From NCBI GenBank assembly GCA_963801605.1, contig CAWDFP010000007.1, positions 224,001 to 288,000 of the forward strand: a stretch of DNA of 64,000 bases, read 5' to 3'. Source of the DNA: an uncultured candidate division Zixibacteria bacterium (GTDB lineage Bacteria > Zixibacteria > MSB-5A5 > UBA10806). A program made the translations under genes and the position numbers. Below are positions 5,115 to 63,984 of this stretch, piece after piece (position 1 is the first letter of the stretch; every line of letters begins with the position of its first letter). Under the pieces are notes generated by a model, which worked only from the letters and a program-made list of their open reading frames with translations, was not told where the DNA came from and did no database searches.

Positions 5115-8093
5115 TTACTGTTCCCCAATCACTTTTTCGTCACTCAATGGATGTAGCAAGAGATCTCCCCCGGGAGGACAATCCGGACAAAAGCGCAGCG
5201 GCTCTCCCCCCTTGAAATAGCTTACCAGAAAAGTAACATCGAGACCGTTCACACTGCAGCTTCCATTGACATCACAAGCTGGCGATATCGCCCCGTTGGG
5301 AGGACAATCCATGGTAAAAGGAGGCGGATCGCCTCCCTTGAAATAATTAACCAAAAATACCACATCCAAGCCGTTAGCCTGGCCGCTGTTATTGACATCT
5401 CCCGAAACATAGGATGTGCCGCGGGAAATATTGAAACTAAAATCTTGCGAACTGCTATCAGCGATAATATCTGTAACCAATACGGTGAAATTTATTACAC
5501 CTGAGTCGCCCGGAATACCCTCAAGTAACCCATCACCGGAGAGCGCTAACCCGCTGCCTGCCAGATCGTTATCCCTATCGATCCAGTGCCTGACCCCGGT
5601 TCCTCCCAAGGCCTGAAGTTGAATTGAATAAGGCCGACCTGCGAATCCGTTGGGAAGCGTCAGCGTCGTTATCGCCAGTATCGGATTGACGGTGAATACG
5701 AAGGGACGCTCATCAGAACCGCCTATTTGATCTTCAACTCGCGCCGTAAATGATATCTGGTTCGCGGCAATTGGAACACCCGAAACAAGCCCGGCGGTGG
5801 AAAGTGTCAGCCCGGTGCCATTAAGACCATCCAGGGGATCGTACCAGATTAGCATACCGCTTCCGCCAATAGCCTCAAGTTGCTGGGAGTAAATATGCCC
5901 AACTGTCCAATCGGGCAGTAAATCGGTCGTAATTTCCAATGACGGCGACGCTGTTGGCGGGAAAACGATATAATCGATCCAGCCGCAATCGCTGCCGCTG
6001 GAGACGCCGCGGTCTTTATAATATCCCCATTTGAAAGTGTGCAGACCGGCGCTGACGCCAAAACTTGCCTGGGTCCAGCCAACCTCACCGGACCACTGGT
6101 TTTGAAGATTATCGTCAATATAAAATTTGAGATAATCGTAATTAAGTTCGGAGGAGACTTTGTAATAAAAAGTGATCGTCCCCGGCGCCGCCACGTTCAT
6201 GGAAATGGAAAGCTCGGATGATTGGTAGTGGGTTATCACTCCCGATCTGGCGCTGTATATCCCCTCATAAGGCAGGCTGGTAGTGGTAATCCAACCGGCA
6301 TTACCGCCCATCTGCCAGGGGAAACTTGTAAAGCCGCCTGACTCAAAATCTTCTACCTGCCGTCCAACTATTACGCTGAAAAAGGCGCTGTCGATATATC
6401 CGCCATTGGCCGTTAGCCCCAAACGGAAATTAATCTGATGATAGGCCGGACAGGAATCGGATATAATAAAATTATATGCCGCCAGCGAAATACCGGCGCC
6501 GGCAGGGGTGATATTCGGATAGCCGGAACTGTCTTGCGCGATAGTAATATAGGAATCTGAACTCGATAAAATCCCGATCGTATTCTGAGCGACGCCTCCG
6601 CCATCATTTCTCAAAGTGATATGCATCGAAACAGTATCACCGGGATCAGGCTCACCGGCGTTATTGGATAAATAGGCTAAATCGGGTGTGGTCGGAATAG
6701 CTTGTAGTTGGACATTCACGTAAGTGGCATGGCGGCTGGTAACGCCGATGCCGCTCACCGTTTGAGTAATATATCCGGGACTGGCAAAGCTGAGATTATA
6801 AGTGCCGTTGGCCAGCATACGATGATAATCGCCAACGTTGGGATCTGTAAATACCCGAGCGCTATCGATATCATGGCCAATAACTGTCACAACTGCCGCT
6901 AATGGATCGCCTGTTGAGGAATCGGTGACAACCCCGCGGATGCCGTAAAGGCTGTTTTCAAGATAATTCAAAAATGATATGCGATTATAATCCCAATGCG
7001 CCGGAAGCTGATTGGCTGGAAGAAGTTTGGTGGCCGATATTTCTATCGTTTCCTCGCGATCTCCCTTGAAGTAGGTCATGTAATCTTGCCGTCCGCCGGT
7101 AACGCGATACCAGGCATATCCATTGGTGATGCCATTATTGAGATCGTCCATATAACCCGATGGGCTATGGGCATGGACGGAATCGGCATAGGCGCGGGAT
7201 ACGTTGATAAACCAGGTATTGTCGGCATGAAGCCTGGACCAGGTATCCCAGGGATAATTGACTACCTCGGCCCCACCGTGAAAATTGGCGGAGATGACGA
7301 AACTATGCGCCGCGGCAAAATTCATCATGGCTATCGTTTCGGGCTGCCAGGCGTTGCCATCGGGATGAGCGCCGGCGGCGGGATCGGGGAAATTACGGTT
7401 GAGATCGACACTGTTGGCGTTATATCTCCAGGCGCCGCTGACAGAGTTATTTCCACCATGATAGGTGCCATCGGGATTAGCCAGAGGATTGATCCAAACC
7501 TCGGTGCTGTCCAGAAGCCGGGTAATCTGCGGATCGGTTCCATAGTTGGTAAGCAGGTAATCGATCAAATGCAGCATTAGAATATAGCCGGTGGTCTCGT
7601 CGCCATGCATGGAGCTGGAATACATCACCTCAGGTTCATTTTCCTGAACGCCGATATTTGTCGATAACTTGGCAAAAAGAAGCTGTCTTCCCTGCACGGT
7701 TGTCCCGATATTTACGATTTGACAGAGATTCGGATAGGTGGTGGCAAATAAATTCATCATATCGAGATAGGCTTGATAGGTTGGATAGGTATCCCAATCG
7801 GTGATGACCCCCTCGACTGTATTTGACATGGGAGGATTAATCAGGCTGCCGGGTGACGGTAGAACCTCATAGCGATATCCTAAAGTGCGAAAATAAGCGA
7901 ACTGCTGATCGGTGGCGTAGGCGTAAACGGTCAGGCCATCGACATTATCTATCGAAATGAGATTGGTCAGCTTATAGACTTCATCATGCGAGCTGATTTG
8001 GAATTTGAAATAATTCTGGCCGGTATCGGCCGATGCGAATGCAGAAAAGATCAGGAGCCATATTACGGCCAGCAACAGAACCTTCGTTTTCAC
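5115..8093 (-). CDS. Exported M14 zinc carboxypeptidase with carboxypeptidase-regulatory-like, Ig-like (He_PIG-type) and C-terminal dockerin-like domains
   Basis: Signal peptide; MHGDE, DLNRNF, NFHGG and EIS M14 motifs; two TTxxLP...Y...L.A.GG Ig repeats; paired GDVNNSG..NGLDV / CDVNGSCSVNGLDV dockerin repeats; GGAGGA RBS before GTG. Confidence 0.92.
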   Translation of the reverse strand: MKTKVLLLAVIWLLIFSAFASADTGQNYFKFQISSHDEVYKLTNLISIDNVDGLTVYAYATDQQFAYFRTLGYRYEVLPSPGSLINPPMSNTVEGVITDWDTYPTYQAYLDMMNLFATTYPNLCQIVNIGTTVQGRQLLFAKLSTNIGVQENEPEVMYSSSMHGDETTGYILMLHLIDYLLTNYGTDPQITRLLDSTEVWINPLANPDGTYHGGNNSVSGAWRYNANSVDLNRNFPDPAAGAHPDGNAWQPETIAMMNFAAAHSFVISANFHGGAEVVNYPWDTWSRLHADNTWFINVSRAYADSVHAHSPSGYMDDLNNGITNGYAWYRVTGGRQDYMTYFKGDREETIEISATKLLPANQLPAHWDYNRISFLNYLENSLYGIRGVVTDSSTGDPLAAVVTVIGHDIDSARVFTDPNVGDYHRMLANGTYNLSFASPGYITQTVSGIGVTSRHATYVNVQLQAIPTTPDLAYLSNNAGEPDPGDTVSMHITLRNDGGGVAQNTIGILSSSDSYITIAQDSSGYPNITPAGAGISLAAYNFIISDSCPAYHQINFRLGLTANGGYIDSAFFSVIVGRQVEDFESGGFTSFPWQMGGNAGWITTTSLPYEGIYSARSGVITHYQSSELSISMNVAAPGTITFYYKVSSELNYDYLKFYIDDNLQNQWSGEVGWTQASFGVSAGLHTFKWGYYKDRGVSSGSDCGWIDYIVFPPTASPSLEITTDLLPDWTVGHIYSQQLEAIGGSGMLIWYDPLDGLNGTGLTLSTAGLVSGVPIAANQISFTARVEDQIGGSDERPFVFTVNPILAITTLTLPNGFAGRPYSIQLQALGGTGVRHWIDRDNDLAGSGLALSGDGLLEGIPGDSGVINFTVLVTDIIADSSSQDFSFNISRGTSYVSGDVNNSGQANGLDVVFLVNYFKGGDPPPFTMDCPPNGAISPACDVNGSCSVNGLDVTFLVSYFKGGEPLRFCPDCPPGGDLLLHPLSDEKVIGEQ

Positions 8094-8246: not shown

Positions 8247-9992
8247 TTATAATCTACCTCGCGCTGGCGGGCAGTCCTGGCAGCCCTGGGGAGCCGGTCC
8301 CATACCCTTCAGATAGCTTACGGAGTAGGTGACATCGAGGCCATTGAAAGAGCAAGAACCATTGGCATCGGCCGCGGAGTAGAATCGTCCCCAGACCGGG
8401 CAATTGCATTTAAAGGGAGGCTCGGGGCCAAATCCTTTGAGATAATTCACACTGTAAGATACATCGAGACCATTGAAATCGCGACTGCCGTTGGCATCAC
8501 CGGCCACATAAGGACAGCCAGGCATAAACATGACGCTGTTTGAGACGGTATCGCCGGGAGTAATATCGATATTTGTTAGAGTCGAATCCATGAAACCCGG
8601 ATAAGAAAGGGTCATCGAATAGTTGCCAGGGACTATATCCGAAATAAAATAATAACCATACTGATCAGTAGTATCGCCAATCGAAGTGCCATCGAGACAG
8701 ATAGCGACGCCGGAAATAGCTATCTGGTTTGTATCTATAACTACGCCCATTGCATATCCGGGGAATGTTAAGGTGGCTTCAACGAAAGTAGAACAACTAA
8801 CCTGGTTGCCAAAGCCATCTATTGCAGTTAAGGCGATAATATTAGTGCCCTCATTTGGATTAAAGCAAACCGTGCCTTTATCATAAGCTCCCTGATTTAC
8901 AAAAATTGTATCAAGATCGCCATTGGGATCTGTAGCGCCGAATCCGGTCAAGCAAACGGGCCGAGTATTGATATAGAGAAGAGATGTATCGCCGGGGCAG
9001 GTGACATCGGGAGGAAAATAAGCCAGCAGGTTGATATACTCCGGCCTTCTGCCCGGTTCCATATAGATGAGCTCGTAATCATCGACGGCACGCCAATTCC
9101 CCTGGGTGGAGGTTGGGAAAACCGAGGCTACGGCCGCGTAACCGCTAAGCGAATCATAATATGAATAAAGGGTATTAACGCGGCGAAATGCCCACATATT
9201 GTAGCCGTCGCTGAGGATGAAATTAAGGGATGCGCCGGCGCTATGATCGATCAGATCCACCAAGGCGTACCTCAAACCGAGTGCGTCTGCCAATTGACCT
9301 GTTCGATATTTTTAAGAAGGTATAAAAAGAAAAGCTCGGAGTCTGTTACTCTTGGAGGTGTCAGACGGATCGCATTCCGGCACACCGGAGCCGGTGGGAG
9401 GATTTTGCGAAAGGTACTCCTCCCCTATCAGATCGAGAAGAATTCGCTTGTTGACCGAACCATTATGCACAAAGGTCCAGGTTCGGCCATTTTTGTGACG
9501 CCAGAACGGATGAGGATTGGCAATGCTGTCACATCCGGAGCAACAACAACCCTGCGAGCAGTGCCTGACATGCGCCATCACGATACTGCACGACTCGCTA
9601 TCCAGCGAAAGAACCAGATTATCAAAATCAGGATCATCGGAAGCCCTGATCGGGCTACGGGCCAACAATGGTTCATCCCCCAAATTTCGATATGAGGCGA
9701 CGCCCCAGCCATCCGTATTAAACCATGACGATAGTATTTTCAGCGAATTAGGATAAGTTATTAAATCTTTTATCAGTATACTATCAGGCAAACCGTTCGA
9801 AATAGCTCCCCACAACCGGCAATTATGGTTTGGCTCATCTCCGTCGATACCCGAAATTCCAGTTTCAATTATTTTTGGCGAATCAGCAAAATCCGGAATC
9901 CATACAGTAAACATCACCATCGCAATAGGAACTGCAATTATAGCTGCAATTCTCATGAGTTCTCTTGAAAAATTTTCTTTCATTTTAAACAT
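8247..9992 (-). CDS. Exported class II glutamine amidotransferase-like (Ntn hydrolase, YafJ/EgtC-like) protein fused to a carboxypeptidase-regulatory-like domain and dockerin; split by two compensating indels
   Basis: ORFs 9312..9992 and 8247..9293 share a frame. Motifs CRLWG, NTDGWG, MAHVR, NPHPF, FVHNG, LNFILSDG. The conserved TDSELFFLYLL lies in the +1 frame across ~9345-9295. N-terminal hydrophobic segment; C-terminal GDANGS dockerin pair. Confidence 0.8.
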
Positions 9993-10451: not shown

Positions 10452-10497
10452 ATGGGTGGCGAGTATTGATATGAATTTACTTAAAGGAAAGGTTAAG

Positions 10498-12774
10498 ATG
10501 CGTGGCAAGATTTTAACATTGATTCTCTGCATTGTTGCGATTCCCCTAACGCTGCTTGCAGAGCAGTTGACTCCACAGGATATTCGGAATATCGAGTGGC
10601 AAATGAAAACTAGTTATTATGACAAATTAAAGGAAAGATTAAACGAACCTACTATTCTGGATCAAAGTGATTTCGATGTTAAATATTGGGATTTAACCCT
10701 GGATGTTACCGATGTCAGTGGTCAGACGATCAGCGGCAAAGTAATCATGACATCGCAAGCGGTTGTCAACAGCCTATCGACCATTGATTATGATTTGAAC
10801 GCATCGATGATCGTAGATTCCGTCAAGGTCGGAGGACAACCGGCAGTTTATAATCATCACGGCAATATTCTTACCATTACATTAGATCGAGCCTATAATA
10901 TCGGTGAGCTATTCACCACTACAGTCACTTATGGTGGGACTCCGGTCGGAGGCGGTTTCGGCTCATTTACCTGGAATACTCACAACGGCCAGCCGATCAT
11001 TTCGAGTTTATCCGAGCCCGAGGGCGCCAGAGAATGGTGGCCATGCAAGGATCAGCCGCACGACAAAGCCGATTCAGCCGATGTCAGAATCATTACACCC
11101 CTGGCATTAACGGGCACATCCAACGGCCTGCTGGTCAGCAATGTCGATAACGGCAACGGTACCAGGACATTTCACTGGCATGTCTCGTACCCCATAACTA
11201 CTTATCTCATTTGTGTCTCGGTTAGCAACTATCGGAGTTTTACAGACTGGTATGTGTACGCCGACGGCGATTCGATGCCGGTCACGCATTACGTCTATCC
11301 TGAACTATACAACTCGGCCGTAATTGATCTCAGCATTACTCCCGCGGCCATCGGGATTTTCGCCAGTATGTTCGGCGAATATCCTTTTATCACTGAGAAA
11401 TATGGGCACTCGCTGTTCCCCTGGAGCGGCGCCATGGAACATCAGGATAACACCAGCTATGGTTCGATGCTTATCACCGGGAATCATTACTATGATATGA
11501 TCCTGGTTCATGAGCTTTCGCATCAATGGTTCGGCGATATGATCACCTGCGATATATGGCCCGATGTCTGGATGAACGAGGGATTTGCGTCTTATTGCGA
11601 GGCGCTCTATACAGAGCGAACCAGCGGTCTGGCTGCCTATCTAAATTATATGCGAATTAATAACGGCGTTAGCGATCCCAGCGGCCCAATTTACAATCCT
11701 AGCGAGCTCTTTGACGGTAATACCGTTTACAGCAAAGGTTCCTGGGTACTGCATATGCTTCGCGGTGTGATGGGAGATTCGTCATTCATGCAGGGATTCC
11801 GCGCCTACGCCAATAACCCCGATCACATGTACGGCACAATCACTACCCGTCAATTCCAGCATCTTATGGAACCATATTACGGCGCCGATTTGGCCTGGTT
11901 CTTCGATGAGTGGGTTTGGGGTCAAAACCGCCCGATCTATCGTTACTCATGGCTGAAACAGGATATCGGCAACGGGCAGTACGAAATCTTCCTGCATGTT
12001 CGTCAGACTCAAGCCTCCCCCGCTCCAAGCGTTTTTACCATGCCGATCAGGATATATCCGAGAATAAATAACGTCGATACTTTGATTACCGTTTGGAATA
12101 ACAGCCGTATCGGTGATTTCCGATTCATTGTCAACGGCAATCCAACTACTCTCGGATTCGATAAAAACAATTGGATTCTGAGAGATGCCACCAGCGAAAC
12201 CTACGGGCTTAATATCGTCACAACGTCACTGCCTGACGGCAACTATCAGTCTGCTTACAACCAGACTATTGAGGCCAGAGGAGGCACGCAGCCTTATCAT
12301 TATGCGGTATTCTCCGGATCGCTTCCTCCCGATTTAAACCTTAATCTCGATACCGGCGTTATCAGCGGTAATTTGACTACAATCGGTACATATACATTTA
12401 CGATCCGATGCACTGATTCATCGAGCCCGGCCAAGAACGATGATCAGGATTACACTATCCACGTGCTCGAGGTCCAGGGCATCTCTGATCAAAACCCGGG
12501 CAACATCCCCACCGATTTTATGGCGATGGGAAACTACCCCAATCCGTTCAACTCCTCGACAGTAATCAAACTCGATCTGCCGGAAGCCGGGAATATTAAA
12601 GTCGATATATATAATATGCTCGGCCAGCATATCGGAACTCTATTCGATGGTTATATGGGCGCCGGTGAAAAAGAGATTGTTTGGAATGGCAATGCGGTTT
12701 CATCGGGAATTTACTTCTACAAAGTGACATCGGGCGACAGAACTGCTACCCGAAAGATGCTCTTGATTAAGTAG
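10498..12774 (+). CDS. Exported M1 family zinc aminopeptidase with Ig-like (He_PIG-type) and NYPNPFN sorting domain
   Basis: GAMEH, HELSHQWFG..WMNEGFA (HExxH-18x-E), YSKG; signal peptide from ATG 10498; C-terminal GNYPNPFN...SSGIYFYK...RKMLLIK. Confidence 0.93.
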   Translation: MRGKILTLILCIVAIPLTLLAEQLTPQDIRNIEWQMKTSYYDKLKERLNEPTILDQSDFDVKYWDLTLDVTDVSGQTISGKVIMTSQAVVNSLSTIDYDLNASMIVDSVKVGGQPAVYNHHGNILTITLDRAYNIGELFTTTVTYGGTPVGGGFGSFTWNTHNGQPIISSLSEPEGAREWWPCKDQPHDKADSADVRIITPLALTGTSNGLLVSNVDNGNGTRTFHWHVSYPITTYLICVSVSNYRSFTDWYVYADGDSMPVTHYVYPELYNSAVIDLSITPAAIGIFASMFGEYPFITEKYGHSLFPWSGAMEHQDNTSYGSMLITGNHYYDMILVHELSHQWFGDMITCDIWPDVWMNEGFASYCEALYTERTSGLAAYLNYMRINNGVSDPSGPIYNPSELFDGNTVYSKGSWVLHMLRGVMGDSSFMQGFRAYANNPDHMYGTITTRQFQHLMEPYYGADLAWFFDEWVWGQNRPIYRYSWLKQDIGNGQYEIFLHVRQTQASPAPSVFTMPIRIYPRINNVDTLITVWNNSRIGDFRFIVNGNPTTLGFDKNNWILRDATSETYGLNIVTTSLPDGNYQSAYNQTIEARGGTQPYHYAVFSGSLPPDLNLNLDTGVISGNLTTIGTYTFTIRCTDSSSPAKNDDQDYTIHVLEVQGISDQNPGNIPTDFMAMGNYPNPFNSSTVIKLDLPEAGNIKVDIYNMLGQHIGTLFDGYMGAGEKEIVWNGNAVSSGIYFYKVTSGDRTATRKMLLIK

Positions 12775-21881: not shown

Positions 21882-23948
21882 CTACCTCAGGATGGTCAGT
21901 TTATGTGTCTCGCCATATTCCCCGTTAATAATAAACCTGTAAAAATAAATTCCGGACGGTAAATTGAGTCCTTTATCGTCGTGGCTATCCCAGCGAATAT
22001 CATTGTACCCCACTGCATAAATCCGAGGCTCTATGTTTCGAACGAGGCGTCCGCAAATATCATAGATGGCGACTCCTACGTAAGAAGAAACGTCAAGATT
22101 AAGTCGGATACTGGTCCCCGTTCCAAACGGATTAGGGTAGTTGAATACCTGCGACGGATTTTGAGGCGGAACGATTTCATTTGCCACACCGACAATGGTT
22201 TGGTTATCGATAAAAACAAATTTGCCATTGACATTAATAATGATGTCTTCGCTACCGTCACCATCCAAATCTGCCAGTTCGAAATATTGCACAGTCAGGT
22301 CTTGCAGATCGGTTAGCGCGGTCGGCTCAAAAAGAAATGACGGGTTATCGGGTGACCCCACGTTCAGATAAGCGTTCAAATGCCCATTGACTAAAAGCAC
22401 CAGGTCCGGAAGCGAGTCGCGGTTGAGATCGGCGGCGTTGACAAAGTTGGAGCCTAGTTCGAGCCAATTTAGCCAATCGGGCCGTTCTGTCCAAGCGGGA
22501 ATTTGTGTCGTGCCGGTGTTACCAAAGATGGCGAGTTGATGAAGTGAATTATTGTAAACGATCAAATCCAGCCTCCCGTCATCATTGAGATCGACAAGCT
22601 CAGGATAACGAAAACGGGCGGAATCGTTGAGGGAGGCAAAACAAGAAGCTATATCGCCAAACTCTCCAGATGGATTGTTGACACGCAGGCCGAGTCTGTT
22701 GGAATGACTATAAGCAATATCGGGTAATTGGTCACCGTTAAGATCTCCTGATGTCATTCCCGTTTGAACTACCGGCATAAATATATTTTGAAGCCAAGAA
22801 GAACGACTAAAGGATGGCGAGTCATTGCCACCCGTATTTTCATAGCCCGACCAGTCTACATATATATCAAAATGTCCGCCCATAGGATCATATACTGCAT
22901 AAGTAAAGTGCAATGCAAGATCTAGATCCCCATCATTATCCTTGTTAAAAAATGTGAAATCGCGACTGCTTTCGAAATATTGGGGGCCCAATTTTACTAT
23001 TGATGACGGATCGAAATTTGGCGTTGTTGGATTGCCCTCATTGCGGCAAAAAGAAATTACAGGCGAATCGCCCCCGCAGATAAGATCATAATCGCCGTCA
23101 TTATCCAGATCGCCTATCGAAACTGAGCTATTGGACGAGGTACCGGACATAAATTCAAAATCGGGATACAGCCCAAATAATGGTACACCGTTTGTGCCTT
23201 GGTTCAGTAGAACTCCAACATAGTAAGGGCCATCGCATATTATATAAGTAATGGCTAAATCATTGTTCCCATCGGTGTTAAAATCGGCAATATCAATTCC
23301 GCCATAGCCGCAGGGTGTGATATGAAGCTGTAAAGCCGAGGTCTTGCCAATATCGAAAGACCAGTAAGGATTGTCAGGTGTGCCTGTATTAGAATAAAAT
23401 ACATATGAATATTCGCCATTGGATAGGACAATCAGATCGAGGTTTCCATCGCTGTCCCAATCGACAAATCTCTGATCGCAAACCGGCATCTCGATCCGCG
23501 CATGGTCAGTCATATAACCCGAAAGCTCTTGCCAATCGGGAGCATCGAAGCCACCCCTGTTCCTAAAAACTCGCATTGAATCAATCGGGAAGTCTGCATT
23601 CTTGAAGCTAACCACCAATTCCAGTGAGTCATCGTTGTCGATATCCCCTGATGTCGGCACAACAGAATGGGAAAATTGGAATGAGGCAAAATAAGTCGTA
23701 TCTTCTCGCCAGGCGACAACATCTGGAAAGCCGTCATTCAAATAAAGCTTGATCGTGCCATCTCCCTGGCCCACGATGAGATCTAGATCCGAATCCCCAT
23801 CAATATCATAAAGGAATGGCGAACATGTGTCAGCAACATCAATTCGGCTCGGGTTTAACAACGTATTCGACATGTCCCAATGCCAATCTTGGGCATTAGA
23901 AAGGGAAATCCAGATAAAAAAGGTCCCCGCGATTATCAGGGACCTCAA
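21882..23948 (-). CDS. Exported FG-GAP/VCBS-repeat protein with NYPNPF sorting domain
   Basis: Multiple DxDxDGDxDL repeats; signal peptide; C-terminal NYPNPF...SGIYFYR...KLTILR. Confidence 0.88.
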   Translation of the reverse strand: MRSLIIAGTFFIWISLSNAQDWHWDMSNTLLNPSRIDVADTCSPFLYDIDGDSDLDLIVGQGDGTIKLYLNDGFPDVVAWREDTTYFASFQFSHSVVPTSGDIDNDDSLELVVSFKNADFPIDSMRVFRNRGGFDAPDWQELSGYMTDHARIEMPVCDQRFVDWDSDGNLDLIVLSNGEYSYVFYSNTGTPDNPYWSFDIGKTSALQLHITPCGYGGIDIADFNTDGNNDLAITYIICDGPYYVGVLLNQGTNGVPLFGLYPDFEFMSGTSSNSSVSIGDLDNDGDYDLICGGDSPVISFCRNEGNPTTPNFDPSSIVKLGPQYFESSRDFTFFNKDNDGDLDLALHFTYAVYDPMGGHFDIYVDWSGYENTGGNDSPSFSRSSWLQNIFMPVVQTGMTSGDLNGDQLPDIAYSHSNRLGLRVNNPSGEFGDIASCFASLNDSARFRYPELVDLNDDGRLDLIVYNNSLHQLAIFGNTGTTQIPAWTERPDWLNWLELGSNFVNAADLNRDSLPDLVLLVNGHLNAYLNVGSPDNPSFLFEPTALTDLQDLTVQYFELADLDGDGSEDIIINVNGKFVFIDNQTIVGVANEIVPPQNPSQVFNYPNPFGTGTSIRLNLDVSSYVGVAIYDICGRLVRNIEPRIYAVGYNDIRWDSHDDKGLNLPSGIYFYRFIINGEYGETHKLTILR

Positions 23949-25474: not shown

Positions 25475-25483
25475 ATTCAACTC

Positions 25484-37358: not shown

Positions 37359-37409
37359 TACTCCTTCTCCTGCTGATAGTTCGCTTATCAAGGCGAATTA
37401 TTCCCATCG

Positions 37410-52996: not shown

Positions 52997-53505
52997 AAGA
53001 TCCTCCGGGCGCAATGGGCTTCACATGTCCCGTTTATGCTATCAGCGATTAGGCTGGTGAATTTGTAAAAGAAATAAATATTCAATCCGCTAATTTGATA
53101 TCGTTTGACTAATTTGGCCCCCGATGAATTCTCTTGATTGGCAAGCCTATAGGGCTTGAAGGAATCATTTTGCATAACAAATTAATATACCCTGACTATA
53201 AAGGAGTTTCAAGCGAAAATAGATTTGATATTCTGACTTTTAAATATCTCTTGACTTAATCCGCTATTCTCTTTTCTTATATAAGGGATATAGGCCGTTC
53301 ATTTTGTTTATCATTTAGTATTCAAAGTCTACCTGAATTGGACCGGTTGTTGAACCTGTTGACCAAATACCTCTGTTCTTCGGTAAAAAACGCAAGCTGC
53401 ATTTCGTATTAAAGCAGAATTTAGGTCCGGATTATTTATGTAATCCGAAAAATATGATTATTTACAGCTTATTTCTTTCTTGCAACGGGAGCTAAGGAGT
53501 TGACT

Positions 53506-56500
53506 ATGAAAAACGTTAAGATTTTGTTATTGGTGATAGTTATGGCAGCTGGAGTTCGGGCTGCGACGCCGGGTGGGTCTACTCCAACCCCAAAGGTACT
53601 GGATAACGTTTTATTTGAGGATTTCGAAAATCCGTCGGGTTGGAACGGCGCTAATCCGGCAACGGGCTGGACTGTCATCGATAATGGCCAGGCTGACGGC
53701 GCCTGGGACAGCTATGATTGGTCAAAGTACTCAGCCTGGGGCGGAGGTACTGCCAGGGTGAGCGGGGCGTCTGCCAACCGCTATAACAACGATTGGCTCA
53801 TCTCCCCCGCCGTTGATTTTAGCTCCTCAACCGCTTGCACCCTCTCCTATCGTCACTATTATGATGATTATCTCACTCAGGATGCTGACTCCGCACTGGT
53901 GCTCCTTTCAAACGATAATGGTTCAACCTGGGGCGACACCGTTATGGTATACGCGGGCGCCGATTACGGCAGTGATTCAGTCCCCGATAGCGAATATTTT
54001 AATATTTCGTCATTTGCGGCCGGATATAGCCAGGTTGTAGTCGCATTTCAATATGTCAAACGCCAGGCTGTTGTGACCGGCTCCTGGCGTATTGATGATG
54101 TTAATCTGCGCGCCGATGGCGCTTCCCTATTAATTCAGAATTTCGACTCCGGCTGGGGCCCCTATGGCGACAATCCTCCCGCCAATTGGACGCTTCTCGA
54201 TATCCATGTGGTTAAATGGGATGATAACGATTGGCATCAGGCTAACGTAGCTAACTGGGGGAATATCGCCGATGTCTTCTGGTCTCCTATAGAGCAACAA
54301 AATGAATTTCTTATCAGCCCGGTCGTAGATTTATCCGTGGGTACCATTGATATCCACTTGACGCTCAAACAATGGTACGACGACCAGGCCGGCAACACCG
54401 ATACGGCTTTTATCCTTGGCTCTATCAATGGTGGCAGTACCTGGCCGGAGACTCTCGCCGTTTATGCCGGTTCCGATCGGGGTTCGCTTTCCACTCCAGC
54501 TTACGATACCCTTGAAATGACGAACTGGGCCAATTACGAATCCAACATTAAAATAGGTTTCAAATATGTAGGCAACAACAATGGCCGCTGGTATATCGAT
54601 AGCGTCGGAGTGGATCGAATCGATATGTATACCAACGATGTCAAAGTCGATTCCATCACTAAACCGCCTGAAGTCACAATCACAGGCTATTACTGGCCAA
54701 TCTCGGCGGTCGTGCAGAATGTAGGAGTCTATACCAACACTTTTGAAGTTGTTTATCAGATATTCGATTCCACAGAGGCTCTCGTATATGCGGATTCTCA
54801 ATCGGTAACCGGCTTAACAAGCCTTGAAAGACGGACAATAAACTTTAATCCCTGGCATGCCGCTGAATCAAATTCCCATTCTATTAAATGTTTTACTCGA
54901 ATGTTTATCGATCTGGACCACGCCAACGATACTCTGCTGGCCAATACCATGACTTATCCTCATATCGGCCATGCCGGACCGGCTGAGGGTTGGTCCTACA
55001 ATGATAATATCACCGGCGATGGACCTCTCTTTAACTGGGTTGATATCCGCAGCATTGGAACTGAAATAAACTTTTCCGATCCTGACAACGCCAATTCCGG
55101 CATGATTGATATGGGCATTAATTTTAGCTATTTTGGACAGACTTATTCAAGGATCGCCGTTTCTACCGATGGCTGGTTATCGTTCGAGGATTCGCTTGGT
55201 ATCGATCACACCCCATCCGCCATCCCCGATCCCGATGGCCCTCAGGCGATGATAGCGCTCCTCTGGAATGATCTCCATCTGCGAACCGGCCATGCTTACT
55301 ATCATCAGGATCCCGTTTTATACAGATTCATTGTGCAATTTGATAGCGTTGAGTATGCCGATATCCCCGGCTCGGATATTGGTATGGAGATCATATTCGA
55401 CGCTCCCGCCAATTCAATCAAAATGCAGTATAGCTATTTCGCTGACGGTTCGAATTCTGATGTCTCTATCGGACTTGAAAATCAAGCCCAGGATATCGGC
55501 CTCTCCTATAGTAATGGAGAAATCGGACAATCCCCACAACCGGGTTTGGCGATTACCTATACTTATCTTCCGCCGCATGATGTCAAAGCGCTGGCTATCG
55601 ATCAGCCTGTAGATTTGGTGCGCAATGGCGGGAATTTCGACATCGTTGCCAGAATCCAAAACGTTGGAGCCAACTCCGAAAGTTTCGAGGTTACCGCCAG
55701 CGATAATCATGGTTTTAGTAACACTCAAATCGTCAGCGATCTGGCATCGCTGGCTACCGATACTGTCACGTTCTCCGATTGGCCGATTTCCAGCGAATGT
55801 GAAACATACGCTTTAAGGGTATTCTGCAACCTGGGCGAGGATTCCAATCGTTCCAACGATACCGTTCAAACTCAAATTTATGCAATAGCTGCGGCCAACC
55901 TTTCCTATATTTATGATGACGGCGTTATCCTGGCCCGTGTCATTTCTAACGATACGACTGATGTAATTGCCGCCAAATTTAATAGCGCCTATGAGAATGC
56001 GACTCTCTCCGCAATATCTTATAAATTTCTAAATCAGGATGAGCTGCCTTATCCAACGGGACTTGATTCGGCCAAAGCTTGTATTTTCATCGATGCCGAT
56101 AATGACGGTCTTCCTGATGCCCAACCTATTTATAGCCACCGTCTGGAGGTCGCCAAAACCGGCTGGACAATCTGGGATATTGGTTGTGATACGAATTTGG
56201 TAATTAACTGTAAAAACATTTGGGCCGGATACTCAATCATAGATTCGCCGTATGCCGCTATCGGGGTTGATAGAAACCTCGAATTTCCGGATAATAAATG
56301 GGTTAGAGAGTACGGACAATGGCATCTTCTTGGTGATGCTTACGGAGATTACATGATCAGGGCTTATGTCCTGGCAGATACCTCTACTCAACCCCAGCTT
56401 GCCCTGGCCACCAGGAATATTATCGGAGCGGCCGCGCCTGAAAAGATTGATACTGTCGCATCCTATATTGAAAATATCGGAACCGGATGCGAGCTTGGCT

Positions 56501-57760
56501 ATCATGTCACCATCAATCAAACCAATCAGCGTATATTGGATGAGCCGACTCCCGATATACCTGTTATAACCAGGGAAAACGGGCAAATCGACATCATTAA
56601 TATTCATGATCCTTCCTATGGCAATAATTCGCCTGACCTTCCCCGCACTCTGGCCAACGGCGGTCCCGATAATTACGGTTATACCTGGGTTGATTCCAAT
56701 GATCCGCGCGGCCCTCTCTATCGTTGGATTGATATTTCGGCAATCGGAACTCCTGTCACTTGGAGTAATGGCGACAACGATGATGGCTTTACAAATCCAA
56801 TCCCGATGGGAATGACATTCAACTACTACGGCGCCAACTATGATAGCGTGGTGATTTCCTCCAATGGCTGGATTTCGTTCAGACCGGTTATCGATGATGG
56901 TTTCGCGCACTCGTCCAATGCCGGAATCCCAGCCCCAGGCGAATTTAATACCCTTCTCGCCGTGGAATGGGACAATCTGATTGCCGGCGTTGGCGGCAAC
57001 TGCTATCTTTATCATGATACCGCCGCTGGAGTTTTCATCATCTCATGGCTCAATTGGGCGCATGTGCCGGGTCAGACCGATACCCACAATTTCCAGGCAA
57101 TACTCGATGCCACTCGCGGGACAATCCTTTACCAGTATGGTTTGGGCACATATCCGTCAGATATGACTGTCGGCATTCAGAATTCGGACGGTGCCGATGG
57201 TTTGCAGGTAATTTACAATCAGCCCTATCTGACACAGGATTTGGCAGTCCTTTTCGAGCCGCCGATCTTCTGGCTTTCCACGGACCTGGCTAACGGAATT
57301 CTGCCGGCGGGCAGTGGACAATTTCCATTCAAGGTGTTTATGAACGCCTCCGGCTTGCCGGGTGGCGCTTACAACGGCTCCATAATTATCAGCAGCACCG
57401 ACATCCAGGAGCCGGTAGCCGTAATAAATGTTCAATTCGAGATTGAGGGCGTATGCTCTTATGTTGTTGGTGATGTCAATGGCTCAGGGGCAGGCAACGG
57501 CGTTGATGTGACCTTCATGGTCAGCTATTTCAAAGGCGGTAACACGCCACACGAGGAATGCCCGCCATGCGCAGAATCTGGGCGCCAACATGCTTTATCC
57601 TCAGGGTGATGTTAACGGCTCTTGCAGCTGGAACGGCCTCGATGTGACCTATTTCGTGAGCTATCTCAAAGGGACCGGCCCCGCGCTCCGCTTCTGTGCC
57701 GACTGCCCACCCGGCGCCAGGCTCCTGCCGCCCGCGCCTATCGAGGTGATATCAAAATAA
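53506..57760 (+). CDS. Very large exported modular protein (two cleaved-adhesin/MAM-like domains, CARDB-like Ig, two NIDO-like modules, C-terminal dockerin); +1 frameshift near 57573
   Basis: Signal peptide; FEDFE...WLISP..W.IDDV; GPD..YxWxD modules; the corrected tail reads GDVNGSCSWNGLDVTYFVSYLKG...FCADCPP to TAA at 57760. No catalytic motif recognised. Confidence 0.85.
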
Positions 57761-57864: not shown

Positions 57865-59574
57865 CTATATCCTATCAGGCGGGCAGTCATAACAGAAACG
57901 GAGCCTGCCATAACGACCCTTTAAATAACTTATATAAAATGTGACATCCATACCATTGAAGCAGCAGGAGCCGTTGACATCTCCTGCTGCATAGAAGGGC
58001 CTAATTATTCCCTGACAATCGCAGTCAACAGACAGAGGCGCTCCCCCTCCTTTAAGGTAGTTAACTGCATTGACAACATCTGCGCCGTTTTTAAGACTAT
58101 CACCGTTCAAATCTCCCAACAGATAACTGCATCTTACAGGACCCTCCCGAAATGAAAATTGCTCAATAAGCGGTGTTGTTGGTATTAAGTCAGCCGGTAT
58201 TTTCTGGTAGATAACATAGTTTTGAGTATAACTGCCCTCTTCCTCTTGAGCCACTCCGGCATCCTTATCCAGGATATAGGTGATATGCAGCGTGTCATTT
58301 ACTACATCAAGGAGCGAAGCCTGTATTTCAGAGGAGCAGTCTCCGGGGTGGCAGCGACTGGTGTGGGTATCGGTAATATTAACCCCTGTTGACCAGTTGA
58401 GGCCATTATCAGTTGATACCGTAATCCATAGGTCGGCGACGCCATATCCCAGATAGGATCTTTCATCAGGATAATAGCGCTCATAGAGCATATAAAGGTA
58501 GCTGTTGGCAGGATTTATGGCCATTTGGGGCCTGTTTACGGTGCGGCTGCAATAGCCGAGGATAGCGTTATCGGCAGGATCCCGCAACCAGCCATCGGCA
58601 ACTACAGTGAATGAATCTGTTACCTCGCTCCAGTGCCAGATAAAACACATATTAAATTCCGCTCTATAGCTGTCCGGCTCCGCCCTGTTTATCTTAAGCT
58701 CCAGGTTATTGAAAGCGATATGGATATTATCAGCATAATCAATTATTAAATCGCTGCCATAATAAGGCCGGAAGGGATCGCTTTCGGCACAGTCGGTAAC
58801 ATTAGTTTTGTCCTGGAAATCCCAATTGAGCCCATCAGAAGAGGTGATAAGGTAAATATCCTTGTCATCGAAGGGCCCCGAAGAGCTATGATGAAGAAAG
58901 TCCCTCTGCTTGTTGTAAATAACAGCTACCTTTTCTGTGACAGGCGATGTGGCAATACAATATCCGCCGCTTAAAGTATCGATAGCCTGCCAGCCGGTGA
59001 AAGTGTATGGTTGAAGATTGTAATTGGCATATATAAGCGTATATAAGCTAGGCCATATTTCACCTCTTGCGAGAATATGTACTGCGCCGTCATTAGTTAG
59101 AGCACCGATAGGGGTATTTTCATAAGGAAAACGAATGGTATCAAGCGGGCTAGACTCAAACTGATTTCCATTCCACCAGGAGCGATAGGTCGGAAAGCTG
59201 CCGGAAGCTCCATAGATCATTTCCAAAGCATCTCTGCCCCCTGAGCTGCCTCTAAGTAGCACAGAATGGTCCTCATGATTATAAACCCCGGGAAACATCT
59301 CAAGGCCGCTATCCCCATAAGCCCAACCGGAGTCAGGGTTGTAGAAATTGAAGGCGCTGCCGCCTGTAACCCAATAGTGGTCATACGGGGCGTAGGTCCA
59401 AACGATATAGATATTGCCGGTAACGCTGTCTCTGGCTATTTGAGGACCGGGATTTGCACAGCCAAACTGCTCCTCATGCCAGGTAATGCCAACCGTATCT
59501 ACCTCGCCTATGGGTTCGGACAAGGCAGATGAGAGTGCCAGAAGAGTTAAGAGCATTACTGCGAAAAGGCGCAA
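57865..59574 (-). CDS. Exported Asp-box/BNR beta-propeller-like protein with dockerin
   Basis: Probable start TTG 59574 (GGAGG 8 nt upstream; MRLFAVMLLTLLALSSALS); SSDGLNW and STDNGLNWS Asp-boxes; dockerin pair. Confidence 0.82.
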   Translation of the reverse strand: MRLFAVMLLTLLALSSALSEPIGEVDTVGITWHEEQFGCANPGPQIARDSVTGNIYIVWTYAPYDHYWVTGGSAFNFYNPDSGWAYGDSGLEMFPGVYNHEDHSVLLRGSSGGRDALEMIYGASGSFPTYRSWWNGNQFESSPLDTIRFPYENTPIGALTNDGAVHILARGEIWPSLYTLIYANYNLQPYTFTGWQAIDTLSGGYCIATSPVTEKVAVIYNKQRDFLHHSSSGPFDDKDIYLITSSDGLNWDFQDKTNVTDCAESDPFRPYYGSDLIIDYADNIHIAFNNLELKINRAEPDSYRAEFNMCFIWHWSEVTDSFTVVADGWLRDPADNAILGYCSRTVNRPQMAINPANSYLYMLYERYYPDERSYLGYGVADLWITVSTDNGLNWSTGVNITDTHTSRCHPGDCSSEIQASLLDVVNDTLHITYILDKDAGVAQEEEGSYTQNYVIYQKIPADLIPTTPLIEQFSFREGPVRCSYLLGDLNGDSLKNGADVVNAVNYLKGGGAPLSVDCDCQGIIRPFYAAGDVNGSCCFNGMDVTFYISYLKGRYGRLRFCYDCPPDRI

Positions 59575-59605
59575 TTGTTGTGCCTCCGGTTTTTCATGTT
59601 CTTTA

Positions 59606-59741
59606 TTACCAATATCTCGGAAATGGCGGGCAATCATAGCAGAAGCGAAGTTTCGGCTCTCTCCCCTTCAAGTAACCCACATAGAATGATTGTGGAAATA
59701 CTCATTAGAAACTGGCCAATTCTCAAAGAATAGAATTTCAT
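59606..59741 (-). pseudogene. Collapsed remnant of a third dockerin gene (signal-peptide start joined out of frame to a dockerin tail)
   Basis: GGAGG RBS plus MKFYSLRIGQFLMSISTIIL; 59686..59606 reads FYVGYLKGREPKLRFCYDCPPFPRYW*. Confidence 0.7.
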
Positions 59742-59835
59742 ACATTGTCCTCCGTTTGGATTAAATGTCCATTAAACCAAAAATAACTTCAATTGGGATA
59801 TCGAATTTGCCATTAACATATCTTCTTAAAAAACA

Positions 59836-61584
59836 TTAAAGATAATCCGGCGGGCAATCTGAGCAGAAGAGGAACCTATGAAAGCGGCCCTTTAGATAAC
59901 CAACGTAATATGTGACATCCATGCCATTAAAACTGCAGGAGCCGTTAACGTCCCCTGCTCCATAAAAGGGTGCTTCCTCATTTGGACAACTGCATTCAAC
60001 AGCAGGCAGGCCCCTGCCACCCCTGAAAAAGTTAACCGCATAAACTATATCGCCGCCATTTGTCTGATTATCCCCGTTAATATCCCCCGGCATGTATGAG
60101 CATCTCACTGGCCCGTCCCTGAATGAGAATTGTTCAATAAGGGGAGTTGTGGGAATTTGGTCAGCAGGTATTTTCTGATAGATAACGTAGTTTTGGCTGG
60201 GCCAGCCCTCATGGTCTTGATATATACCGCCATCTTTATCTAATATATAGACAACATGCAGGGTATCATTTGCAATTTCATATAATGAAGCTTGCACCTC
60301 GGAGGCGCATTCTCCCGCACTGCAGTAAGGCGTGTGAGTATCTGTAATATTGGTTCCCAAAGACCAGTTGAGACCGTTATCTGTAGATACTGTGACCCAT
60401 TGATCGGCTACTCCGAAGCCGTTGCCGGAATGCTCCTCCATATAATACCGTTCATAAAGCATATAGAGATAACCATTGATGGGATTTATCGCCATTTGGG
60501 GCTTATCGACAAAACAACTATAATGCCCAAAACCGGACGGGTATGCATTGGGAATCCAGCCACTTGCCGCCACCGTAAAAGAGTCCAGATCTTCGCTCCA
60601 GTGCCACAGAAAGCACATGTTATAGGCAATCCTGGAGCTTTCTGGCTCACTTCTATTTATTTCATACTCAAGCGTCTTGAAGGCGATATGAATATTAGCC
60701 GCATAATCAAATATGGCATCAACGTCCATAAACGGCCTGAAAACATCACTCTCCGCAAAATTGGTGATGTTATTTTTTGCCTGGAGATCCCAATTTATTC
60801 CATCGGGAGAGGAAATGATATATATATCCTGATCAAAATCCAAACCGTACACGCCCGTATCCGAAAACACTCTTTGTCTCAAATAAGAAATTGCTTCCTT
60901 ATGGCTAACAGGCGAAACGGCAATGCAATAAGCCTGATTGGTCGAGGTATCCACACATTGCCAGCCGCTAAAATTATAGGGGTCTAAAACATAACTGCCA
61001 AAATATAGGCGGGAGCACCCTAATCCATCGCTTCCTTCTGCAAGCAATTGAACGCAACCATTATTAAAAATAGCGTATGATGGTACAAATTCATGGGGTG
61101 AATTAACCGTGTCAATCCGCATGGTTGTGAAGCTATCGGCATTCCACTTGGCGCGAACCATGTATGTAATTGGAGATGCTAAAACTATCTCTACATCGTC
61201 CAGGCCGCCGTAATTACCCGGCAAAAGAACTGAGTGGCACTCATTATGATAGGAGCCTGAAAACATCTCTAGGCCGCTATCGCCATAAACCCAGCCTAAA
61301 TTGGGAGTATAATAGTTGAACGCGCTATAAGAACTCCAATAGAATGATTGTGGGGCATAGCTCCAGGCTATATATATATTGCCGCCTATTGTATCCATAG
61401 CCATCATTGAGCCAGCATTGTGGCTGCCCCACTGCTTCTCGCACCAAGTAATGCCCACCGTATCTACCTCGCCTATGGGTTCGGCTATCGCCTCATTGCA
61501 GAAATACGATATAAACAAAGAAAAGACTGCGACCAAGAACCTGGACCTCACACCCAGCATAAAAGCCTCGCTCCTTGCCCCCAA
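59836..61584 (-). CDS. Exported Asp-box/BNR beta-propeller-like protein with dockerin, tandem paralog of 57865..59574
   Basis: Shared EPIGEVDTVGITW, WHWSE, VSTDNGLNWS, YQKIPAD..PTTPLIEQFSFR.GPVRCSY and dockerin. Confidence 0.85.
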   Translation of the reverse strand: MGARSEAFMLGVRSRFLVAVFSLFISYFCNEAIAEPIGEVDTVGITWCEKQWGSHNAGSMMAMDTIGGNIYIAWSYAPQSFYWSSYSAFNYYTPNLGWVYGDSGLEMFSGSYHNECHSVLLPGNYGGLDDVEIVLASPITYMVRAKWNADSFTTMRIDTVNSPHEFVPSYAIFNNGCVQLLAEGSDGLGCSRLYFGSYVLDPYNFSGWQCVDTSTNQAYCIAVSPVSHKEAISYLRQRVFSDTGVYGLDFDQDIYIISSPDGINWDLQAKNNITNFAESDVFRPFMDVDAIFDYAANIHIAFKTLEYEINRSEPESSRIAYNMCFLWHWSEDLDSFTVAASGWIPNAYPSGFGHYSCFVDKPQMAINPINGYLYMLYERYYMEEHSGNGFGVADQWVTVSTDNGLNWSLGTNITDTHTPYCSAGECASEVQASLYEIANDTLHVVYILDKDGGIYQDHEGWPSQNYVIYQKIPADQIPTTPLIEQFSFRDGPVRCSYMPGDINGDNQTNGGDIVYAVNFFRGGRGLPAVECSCPNEEAPFYGAGDVNGSCSFNGMDVTYYVGYLKGRFHRFLFCSDCPPDYL

Positions 61585-61621
61585 CTAAACCACAGCTTGC
61601 AGAATCATTGTATGCCATAAA

Positions 61622-61650
61622 ATAATATTAATCATGTATAAAAAAGTCAA
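61622..61650 (-). promoter_or_regulatory. Putative sigma70 promoter of the dockerin-paralog array
   Basis: TTGACT-17 nt-TATTAT on the minus strand. Confidence 0.55.
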
Positions 61651-61687
61651 GTAAAAATAATGGATTAATTGGCAGTTATAATAACTT

Positions 61688-61717
61688 CAGCCCCCGGTCC
61701 TTATGAACCAGGGGCTG
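61688..61717. terminator. GC-rich hairpin downstream of the LVIVD gene
   Basis: CAGCCCCCGGTCC-TTAT-GAACCAGGGGCTG; weak U-tract. Confidence 0.45.
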
Positions 61718-61857
61718 CTATTCGGAGAACTATGCTGTAATAGCTAATTCAGATGCGCTAACATCGCCGGATGAACATCCGTGAGCTTGCGTTTGAGTAT
61801 CGTGCGTCCCCGCGACAGACGGCTGCTTCGGGCCTCCGGCCTCGTCTGCCCCCGCAA

Positions 61858-63984
61858 TTATTTCATCAGCACCATCTTAATATTCTGGCTCTTCTCCCCC
61901 GCATCGAGACGGGCGAAATAAACACCGGAGGGAAAATCTTTGGCATCCCAAACTATCTGATGCTCTCCCGCCGTCTTAGTTCCCTCAAACAGAGCCGTCA
62001 CCTTCTGACCAAGCAGGTTATAGATTGATATTGTAACGGAGCCAGCATCAGGCAAAGAATAGCTTATGGTTGTTTGGGCGTTGAAGGGGTTGGGATAGTT
62101 TTGAGAGAGGGTTAGCTCATATGGGAGGCTGACGTTTTCTATTAATTTTGTTTCGGGGTCCCTGAATATTATCAAGGAATATGTATCACAATAATATATA
62201 TAGCCACCTGAAGACGATATCGCTGCTGCAAGACCGGGAGTAATAAACCTCGAGGTTAGATGAGGGTGAGCAGGATCCGCTATATCGATTATTATTAGGC
62301 TGCTCTTCTGCTCCTCCTGATACCAGCTATCCGCCATAAAAGCATAATTGCCTAAAATGGTAACGCCCTTGGCATTACCAGGAGTGTCACAGGCCCCAAT
62401 AAATATAGGGGTTGTTGGCTCAGTAATATCCAAGATTAATAATCCATTCGCTCCGTCTGCGATAAATGCATAGTTCCCCGAAACAAACACATCTTGCGCG
62501 TATCCCGAGGTAATATATCTGCTTGTAAATATAGGATTTAAAGGATCGGTGATATTTATAATTAGTAAGGAGCTAACGTCGGCCAAATATGCGTAACCCT
62601 CGGAAACAAATACTTTACAAGTCCACCCGGGGGTGCCGTAGGCCCCTACTGAAATCGGATTCGCCGCATCAGAAATATCTACTATTTCATAACCGTACTC
62701 GCCTTCAGCGACATAAGCATAACTGCCGGAAATAGCCACATTATATGCTTTCGATGTTAGCCGACAAGCGCCTGCAAAAACTGGATTGTGAGGAACCTGC
62801 ACGTTTACTATCAATAAACCAGCTGTATCATCAGCGATGTATGCATATTCAGAAAATTGAGATGTCCCCCAAGCCCCGGCAGGAGTTTTATATGTTCCGA
62901 CCACAATAGGATTGAAGGGATTGGCGATATCTAAAATCTGAAGGCCGCTCCCCCAATTTGCCACATAAGCGTATTCCCCAGTAATTGATACTCCAAGCAC
63001 GTAATCCGGCGTGGAATATCTTCCCACAACTCGGGGCAAACGAGGATTCGCTACGTCGACGATCTGAAGTCCGCCCAAATCGGCGGCAACATAGGCGAGG
63101 CCATTCAGGACAGAAATGCCAATAGAATGGCCCTGAAAATCGCATCCCCCCACAAAAATTGGATTGACGGGATCAGCAACATTAATAACTTGAAGGCCGT
63201 TATCGCCGTCTGCCATGTAAGCATAATCCCTTGAAACTGCAATGTCTTCAGTAAAATCTTGAGTAGCATATGAGCCAACGATGGATGGGAATGTGGGATC
63301 GGATACATCTACTATTTGCATACCCCCTCTCCCGGCAGCGACATATGCATATTCACCCGAGATAATTACTTGATTTGAATAACCATCGTCAGCGGTATTA
63401 CCTACTAGAACGGGGTAATTAGGATTCGAGACATCTACAACTATTAGAGTACTTCCTGAATTGGCCAAATAGGCATAGCTTCCGGATACAAAAACCCCAT
63501 AAATATTTATGGAATTGTTATAATCTCCAATAAACTCGGGATTGGCAGGGTTAGAAATATCCATTATTTGAAGACCGGCCCTATCAGACGCGACATACGC
63601 ATATCGGCCCGATACATAGACATCCCAGGCATATCCGGAAACATAAAGACTCCCAATAAGACTTGGAATCGAAGGATCTGAAATGTCAATTACTTTAAGA
63701 CCGCCTGCGATATCCGCAAAGAAAGCGTAATTACCGGAAATAAATACTCCATAACCGGTTCCCTGCAAAAAAAGCCGGCTTGTAAGCGTTGGTGAGGCTG
63801 AATTTGAGATATCGAAAATCGCCATTCCATCGAAGAAAGCGCAATAAGCGTAATGTCCTGAGATTTTAACATCGTTGACCCCCGTCCAAAGCTCTGAACC
63901 TACATATTCAATATTTTGCGCGCTTGCAGTAAACGAAATGGTAATTAGAAATAAGGATATTGCTATTATCGCCAGCTTTTTCAA
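61858..63984 (-). CDS. Exported LVIVD-repeat protein with NYPNPFN sorting domain
   Basis: About 13 V.VSGxYAYVA...GL.I.D(I/V)S.P..P repeats; signal peptide; AAGGAGG RBS before TTG; C-terminal sorting domain. Confidence 0.92.
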   Translation of the reverse strand: MKKLAIIAISLFLITISFTASAQNIEYVGSELWTGVNDVKISGHYAYCAFFDGMAIFDISNSASPTLTSRLFLQGTGYGVFISGNYAFFADIAGGLKVIDISDPSIPSLIGSLYVSGYAWDVYVSGRYAYVASDRAGLQIMDISNPANPEFIGDYNNSINIYGVFVSGSYAYLANSGSTLIVVDVSNPNYPVLVGNTADDGYSNQVIISGEYAYVAAGRGGMQIVDVSDPTFPSIVGSYATQDFTEDIAVSRDYAYMADGDNGLQVINVADPVNPIFVGGCDFQGHSIGISVLNGLAYVAADLGGLQIVDVANPRLPRVVGRYSTPDYVLGVSITGEYAYVANWGSGLQILDIANPFNPIVVGTYKTPAGAWGTSQFSEYAYIADDTAGLLIVNVQVPHNPVFAGACRLTSKAYNVAISGSYAYVAEGEYGYEIVDISDAANPISVGAYGTPGWTCKVFVSEGYAYLADVSSLLIINITDPLNPIFTSRYITSGYAQDVFVSGNYAFIADGANGLLILDITEPTTPIFIGACDTPGNAKGVTILGNYAFMADSWYQEEQKSSLIIIDIADPAHPHLTSRFITPGLAAAISSSGGYIYYCDTYSLIIFRDPETKLIENVSLPYELTLSQNYPNPFNAQTTISYSLPDAGSVTISIYNLLGQKVTALFEGTKTAGEHQIVWDAKDFPSGVYFARLDAGEKSQNIKMVLMK

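Follow-up and report, generated by a model that had tools for sequence, protein, structure and literature searches.

Cohesin anchors and dockerin-tagged cargo as a probable surface-display system of Zixibacteria

Clostridial OlpA and OlpC are anchored to a Gram-positive surface through S-layer homology domains, and type I dockerins are known to have a dual binding mode. The closest published case to the system described here is Candidatus Stygibacter (Cloacimonadota), a member of a Gram-negative candidate phylum for which the accessible text of PMC8542988 describes, in silico only, C-terminal dockerins on S8 and C25 peptidases, a cohesin protein that ends in a type IX secretion system (T9SS)-type C-terminal domain (CTD) as surface anchor, one scaffoldin of 3,755 amino acids (aa) with tandem cohesins and carbohydrate-binding modules (CBMs), and dockerin-bearing GH18 and GH57 proteins. 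Next comes the 'Planctosome' of Nemodlikiaceae, a hypothetical cohesin-dockerin complex with peptidases, M14 included, in a diderm (PMC6461901, accessible text). Here we describe a stretch of 64,000 nucleotides (the window; G000:C7:224001-288000) from a Zixibacteria assembly (G000; 3.06 Mb, 87% complete) that is rich in proteins ending in either a dockerin or a CTD. The Zixibacteria label is carried by close homologues of the window's M14 carboxypeptidase (5115..8093) and by most loci with the same dockerin. Judged from sequence, the cohesin-dockerin/CTD system is real and phylum-wide, with predicted binding and export. A genome-wide two-tier surface display, in which cohesin-CTD proteins are the anchors and terminal-dockerin proteins the cargo, is its probable explanation. 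Seen at present are the domains and their folds, the C-terminal exclusivity of the tags, the T9SS core genes and tag exchange among M14 enzymes.

In a census of G000 with profiles built from the window's own dockerin and CTD domains, a twin-repeat dockerin closes 52 open reading frames (ORFs), which reduce to 50 genes once two split domains are joined, and a T9SS type-A CTD closes 131; such gene counts are approximate because many genes of the assembly are split. The two sets share no member. A preliminary description of the window, which proposed this count, had called the tags mutually exclusive, and for the terminal dockerin they are. Under independence 6.5-16 shared proteins would be expected (P 7e-4 to 5e-10), assuming 400-1000 exported proteins. 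The same separation appears in G028 (98% complete), where 43 ORFs have a dockerin and, compared by eye, none shares a reading frame with any of the 80 CTDs, and in G037, a single contig with 70 dockerin places and 23 CTDs, none shared. The 150 best of 7,157 representative dockerin proteins all lack a CTD. Since 125 of the 131 CTDs end within 5 residues of the stop codon and nearly all dockerins within about 37, the exclusivity is largely positional: both domains fill the C-terminal slot, and each slot holds one tag.

Exclusivity is a property of the terminal dockerin class only, because a second, divergent dockerin accompanies the CTD. It lies inside five proteins, directly after a cohesin and before a CTD, and for these cohesin proteins, all five with a CTD, the earlier claim fails. 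At C6:276036, Pfam passes Dockerin_1 and Por_Secre_tail together, and the cassette of cohesin, dockerin, spacer and CTD is seen again in most of the 29 relatives' loci that were examined. Five other proteins (P0006, P0017, P0025, P0044 and P0129) consist almost wholly of many dockerin repeats in tandem, and neither a cohesin nor a CTD was detected in them.

The terminal dockerin is type I-like, with a duplicated calcium-binding loop-helix in a dockerin fold (calcium binding is predicted). The predicted model of the 5115 dockerin has a pLDDT (predicted local distance difference test) of 95, and the 25 best Foldseek rows for this 82-residue domain are all cellulosome dockerins, at probabilities of 0.47-1.00 and none at E <= 0.001. 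Both repeats read D-x-N-x-S-x-x-F-N-G-L-D. Across 43 aligned domains, positions 1, 3, 9, 10 and 12 are conserved at 91-100%, position 5 is mostly Ser (67-79%), and most domains have five or six cysteines. The two repeats are near-identical at the recognition positions, a symmetry that suggests a dual binding mode here too.

A genome search for cohesins, also proposed earlier, returns 15 cohesin-like ORFs with 19 domains and at most three cohesins per protein. Eleven of these ORFs end in a CTD, and five of the eleven are composed of a signal peptide, a cohesin and a CTD only, without a dockerin of their own. One such small cohesin-CTD protein, G000:C7:391894, has no Pfam cohesin match; its predicted model (pLDDT 95) matches the OlpA cohesin (E 7.5e-9, TM 0.75) and gives the cohesin jelly-roll for one folded domain, while Pfam PF00963 recognises a cohesin in four other proteins. 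All 61 phylum genomes searched have cohesin-like matches. The cohesins are very divergent (mean column identity 24%), and the C6:278179 cohesin, used as a homologue query, retrieves only 3 proteins. A conserved cohesin hub at G000:C6:258254-282782 (L001) comprises a cohesin-dockerin adaptor, cassette scaffoldins, a single-cohesin anchor, a giant Ig-dockerin protein (Ig, immunoglobulin-like) and an S8-dockerin protein, and similar clusters lie on G028:C7 and G032:C64. C6:1624822 has a weak cohesin match between its two dockerins (E 0.004, one sequence). The lone CTD-less cohesin C6:1732363 was considered as a conserved periplasmic chaperone and rejected, as this query did not find it in 30 other genomes.

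A tree separates the cohesins that precede an internal dockerin from the 'free' ones, namely N-terminal cohesins and those of the small cohesin-CTD proteins. In relatives the terminal dockerin is fused directly to one of these classes, an observation that is new here. A cohesin is present on 18 of the 150 best dockerin representatives, in 16 of them as a terminal-type dockerin, a short linker and the cohesin. These fused cohesins cluster with those of the small cohesin-CTD proteins from G000, G028 and G032 (FastTree support 0.97) and apart from the cassette cohesins of the same genomes. Fusion to a single class would indicate the partner, and from this pattern the 'free' cohesins are the predicted cognates of the terminal dockerin.

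Together these elements suggest how the system may work. CTD proteins, the 11 cohesin-bearing ones among them, would leave the cell through a type IX-like pathway of SprA, PorV and PorU, and PorU would cleave the CTD and anchor the protein at the surface, as in Bacteroidota. The roughly 50 terminal-dockerin proteins would likely clip onto these cohesins through calcium-dependent binding in either of two orientations. Their partners would be the 'free' cohesins, carried by small cohesin-CTD anchors such as C7:391894, C7:392889, C6:446963 and C6:447864 or placed at the N-terminus of a conserved scaffoldin, C6:1208746; each internal dockerin would pair with the cohesin just before it. Such an arrangement would be a peg-board of general use, holding peptidases as well as adhesin-like propellers and redox proteins, and built on single-cohesin anchors rather than as a multi-enzyme cellulosome.

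The T9SS core is present in G000, with the SprA translocon (707 bits, cut-off 200), the PorU sortase (701 bits, cut-off 420; His and Cys intact), a PorV-family carrier gene next to PorU, and type-A CTD substrates. Four further PorV-like places exceed the Pfam cut-off, and SprA is found in 61 of 61 phylum genomes searched. The dockerin proteins lack both a CTD and a C-terminal membrane anchor. Two candidate routes could take them across the outer membrane: carriage while bound to a cohesin-CTD protein, or export through a secretin. According to the accessible text of PMC9251779, proteins pass through the T9SS in folded form, and piggyback transport is known for peroxisomes and Tat; that text documents none for the T9SS. 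Hitch-hiking export, in which CTD-less cargo would bind a small cohesin-CTD adaptor in the periplasm and pass SprA as a complex, in a type IX system running without the known GldLM motor, and in which lineages would re-route one enzyme among dockerin, CTD and exosortase tags by exchanging its last domain, is a tentative proposal that we hold to be rather unlikely. A second type IV pilus-like locus at G000:C6:995069-1013174, has an atypical secretin that scores under both the PilQ and the GspD cut-off, with Ig/invasin-repeat proteins after it, and is a candidate alternative export route.

Tag exchange over evolution is a second source of evidence on what the dockerin does. A CTD-ending homologue exists in the genome for 28 of 43 dockerin-protein bodies, at 28-62% identity; one such pair, of C25 proteins, is 50% identical over 1011 aa. 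Among the M14 homologues of the 5115 protein, the best 120 (itself included; 117 at 63-90% identity) were labelled by script as 88 dockerins, 15 IPTL-CTERM tags, 6 CTDs and 11 without a label; none has two tags. By eye, the 11 unlabelled proteins are four divergent dockerins, one IPTL, one CTD and five partial sequences. Well-supported branches of a quick tree require at least three changes for IPTL and at least two for the CTD. One IPTL form and its dockerin sister share 70% identity over 604 aa, and the CTD forms include one in a Zixibacteria cluster and another in Caldithrix; IPTL-CTERM has no match in G000. This three-way exchange of M14 tags (dockerin, CTD, IPTL-CTERM), with repeated switches and never two tags, is new here. 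Because the dockerin has been exchanged with two known sorting tags, an address role for it is supported. The 'swappable' tags of the preliminary description thus survive as exchange within one enzyme family over evolution; paralogues as far apart as those within this genome are not switchable forms, and there is no sign of regulated switching. About 4 kb from a cohesin cluster, at G000:C7:383447-385478, lie a split exosortase, an adjoining EpsI-like gene (by eye) and a single PEP-CTERM-like protein.

The cargo is varied. Peptidases account for about 12 of the 50 dockerin genes (four M14, four C25, two S8, one M28 and one C1), four of these assignments joining split ORFs by position; 'next-frame' split-gene labels, which can also pick up an adjacent gene, served only where the pieces were shown. 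The other cargo includes LVIVD, Kelch, Vps10-like and probably BNR-like propellers, Ig-repeat giants (one of 2657 aa) and many proteins without a family. No catalytic glycoside hydrolase (GH) family matches any dockerin protein scanned, several of which have no family at all, as the preliminary description had reported for its set. Its central proposal, a cellulosome-like peptidase complex, is too narrow for this cargo, and the long multi-cohesin scaffoldin that such a complex implies is absent from the genome. Six of the seven C25 paralogues of the genome have lost the catalytic His (RG-W/Y/A/D at its position) and kept the Cys, while PorU retains the His. Neither C25 protein of the window has the gingipain-type His-Cys dyad, against a peptidase reading of either, and the His-less proteins are candidates for inactive or differently catalysing gingipain-fold proteins.

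Several dockerin proteins stand apart from these families. The secreted, dockerin-ending protein at G000:C11:1123-2898 (L007) has five CxxCH haem-binding motifs, and a cupredoxin-dockerin protein is found at L031; dockerin-tagged redox proteins could bear on extracellular electron transfer. Two tandem genes at G000:C6:961410-962143 (L062) each encode a signal peptide and a dockerin only, and possibly act as caps or competitors for cohesins. Three small dockerin proteins of G000 (C10:5231-5788, C11:59057-59593 and C11:195156-195755) share an N-terminal domain, which in two of them weakly matches NF058579 PamT. Each of their genes is directly 3' of a gene with a coiled-coil-like tail, with an S74 chaperone domain at C10:5715, and the small proteins are perhaps adaptors that dock fibre adhesins.

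Several points weigh against surface display by cohesin-CTD anchors. Dockerin genes outnumber cohesin domains (about 50 to 19), and divergent cohesins facing a uniform dockerin are unexpected under one shared specificity. In the tandem dockerin-cohesin fusions, binding could be in cis and do no more than brace the chain. As for a dedicated type II secretion system as a possible route for dockerin cargo, both secretins score best as PilQ, one of them under the cut-off. Of the T9SS components that the preliminary description proposed to look for, SprA, PorU and PorV were recovered; GldM in G000, and GldL and GldN in all 31 genomes searched (G000-G030), were not found in searches that had no positive control and did not cover GldK. 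The accessible text of PMC10994853 places CTD binding in F. johnsoniae within the pore of SprA, with release driven by the motor; with GldL/M/N not found, even CTD export is a prediction here. Against this background the terminal dockerin might be a sorting or anchoring signal read by some other receptor (an unknown outer-membrane receptor, a secretin pathway or an envelope polymer), with the cohesins mainly serving their own internal dockerins. It does share its slot with two known sorting tags and has been exchanged with both, the commonest cohesin architecture in relatives already carries its own dockerin, and the closed genome G037 has far more dockerin places than CTDs (70 against 23). 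A canonical dockerin fold with symmetric recognition helices argues the other way, as do the five single-cohesin CTD proteins, which need a partner because they carry no dockerin themselves, and the 16 representatives with a dockerin fused to the cohesin class of the small cohesin-CTD proteins. We consider the signal hypothesis doubtful.

A dedicated multi-peptidase complex, a protease cellulosome whose enzymes act in synergy on one scaffold and feed the neighbouring amino-acid and acyl-CoA catabolism, appears unlikely. The dockerin peptidases do span five families, no glycoside hydrolase is matched, and cohesin-plus-dockerin adaptors could branch, but about three quarters of the cargo is not recognised as peptidase, most C25 proteins lack the catalytic His, and three cohesins per protein is the maximum. 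The catabolic genes are present in the window as described earlier; their adjacency says little, since the tagged genes are scattered over the genome. It is more improbable still that the cohesin-dockerin pairs build a periplasmic or released mesh, such as a matrix or S-layer-like coat, instead of displaying enzymes. The giant Ig-repeat dockerin proteins, the dockerin-only proteins and the dockerin-cohesin-dockerin chains of relatives could polymerise, but many cargo proteins are intact enzymes with a single dockerin, which would not cross-link.

The window holds 13 tagged ORFs and ranks second among 81 windows of 64 kb (median 3). All five dockerin-ending and seven CTD-ending genes of the preliminary description are found where it placed them, with support from Pfam, NCBIfam and window profiles, and M14, He_PIG and NIDO-like modules each occur with either tag. 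Its dockerin list missed a sixth, a C25 (gingipain-like, catalytic His to Trp) and NIDO protein at 2..4867 (minus strand; domain and dockerin-profile matches), whose terminal dockerin, aa 1826-1907 of G000:C7:223102-228870, lies just beyond the window edge. The M14 carboxypeptidase at 5115..8093 (minus; domain matches, dockerin model) carries He_PIG Ig repeats and its dockerin at 5169-5414. A class II glutamine amidotransferase-like protein at 8247..9992 (minus) is formed by two ORFs (9312-9992 and 8247-9293) that, from their frame overlap, are probably a single split gene, with a terminal dockerin at 8262-8513. The choice-of-anchor J/CARDB/NIDO-like protein at 53500..57760 (plus; domain and profile matches) has a frameshifted terminal dockerin whose second repeat continues in a different frame, as far as about 57760. 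A likely BNR-like propeller at 57865..59637 (minus; the propeller call is a lead from a paralogue) has its dockerin at 57874-58128, and its tandem paralogue at 59836..61584 (minus; 57% identity) at 59845-60099. The remnant reported at 59606 is indeed a decayed copy of a dockerin C-terminal end, at about 59606..59689 (minus; 73% identity over 22 aa). Pfam Dockerin_1 accepts a single dockerin of the window, that of 5115 (E 6e-6); those at 8247, 57865 and 59836 match the window-built profile (E 2e-28 to 2e-36).

All seven CTDs hit Pfam Por_Secre_tail, at E 7e-12 to 1e-4, and the TIGR04183 (NCBIfam) cut-off is passed by the six scanned and by 10456. They terminate an M1 aminopeptidase with an intact HELSH motif and He_PIG (10456..12774, plus), an FG-GAP repeat protein (21882..23948, minus) and an Ig and FG-GAP propeller protein (33189..35117, minus), all three called from domain matches; a protein of unknown family (23972..25480, minus), its body 38% identical to the dockerin-ending paralogue C6:809396; and an LVIVD beta-propeller (61858..64000, minus), 31% identical over 602 aa to the dockerin-ending paralogue C7:389397. 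The other two are split. An M14 carboxypeptidase at 35216..37391 (minus; split-gene comparison) comprises two ORFs; the 145-aa ORF at 35216, with the CTD at its end, is the tail of the 35646 gene, since intact paralogues span both pieces, and its nearest genome paralogues (35-52% identity) sit in split genes upstream of dockerins. A C25 protein at 37410..41076 (minus; catalytic His to Tyr), with a NIDO-like module and a CTD, has its propeptide in 40444-41076, and intact paralogues likewise span both pieces (40444/37410). With 9312/8247, these are the split genes of the window. Several housekeeping genes elsewhere in the assembly also look split, which favours assembly errors as the source of the frameshifts and splits.

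If true, the display model would carry cohesin-dockerin assembly into an entire Gram-negative phylum, as a general chemistry of surface display, and would supply a natural cysteine-rich pair that may be orthogonal to the clostridial ones. It raises two testable questions: by what route CTD-less proteins get across the outer membrane, and how SprA, PorV and PorU run where GldL/M/N are not recognisable. A search of the literature, with subscription papers and supplements beyond its scope, found nothing tying Zixibacteria to dockerins or the T9SS, and the accessible main text of the cellulosome survey PMC11557425 contains neither 'Zixi' nor 'T9SS'. The surprise is limited, since the core idea has been published for Cloacimonadota.

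A comparison with the known systems shows what is shared and what differs. SprA, the PorV family, PorU with its His and Cys, and type-A CTDs are those of the Bacteroidota T9SS; in their accessible text, PMC10994853 and PMC11611037 both call the system Bacteroidota's, whereas here it occurs in Zixibacteria with no GldL/M/N recognised. With the clostridial type I pairs of OlpA/OlpC (PDB 3UL4, 4DH2) the Zixibacteria proteins share both folds, duplicated calcium-binding repeats with two-fold symmetry, and a single cohesin with a surface anchor, but they differ in CTD anchoring, Gly-Leu recognition residues, extra cysteines, 17-19% cohesin identity and the lack of cellulases. Without GH cargo or a long, many-cohesin scaffoldin with CBMs, the Zixibacteria system is not a cellulosome. 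The mucinolysome of gut Limousia (PMC12997984, accessible text) is likewise a non-cellulolytic cohesin-dockerin multi-enzyme system predicted from genomes; it has mucin-degrading enzymes and is backed by growth and expression data, whereas the present system is known from genes alone. The Planctosome, as far as the text of PMC6461901 extends, belongs to another phylum, has few components and uses a lamin-tail anchor rather than a T9SS CTD. Stygibacter has the same kind of cohesin-CTD anchor, built around one large tandem-cohesin/CBM scaffoldin with GH cargo that has no counterpart in G000. The Zixibacteria system, in contrast, has many anchors of one to three cohesins and about 50 cargo genes with no GH match; its terminal dockerin is Cys-rich, another class of dockerin is internal, and a third tag takes part in the swaps.

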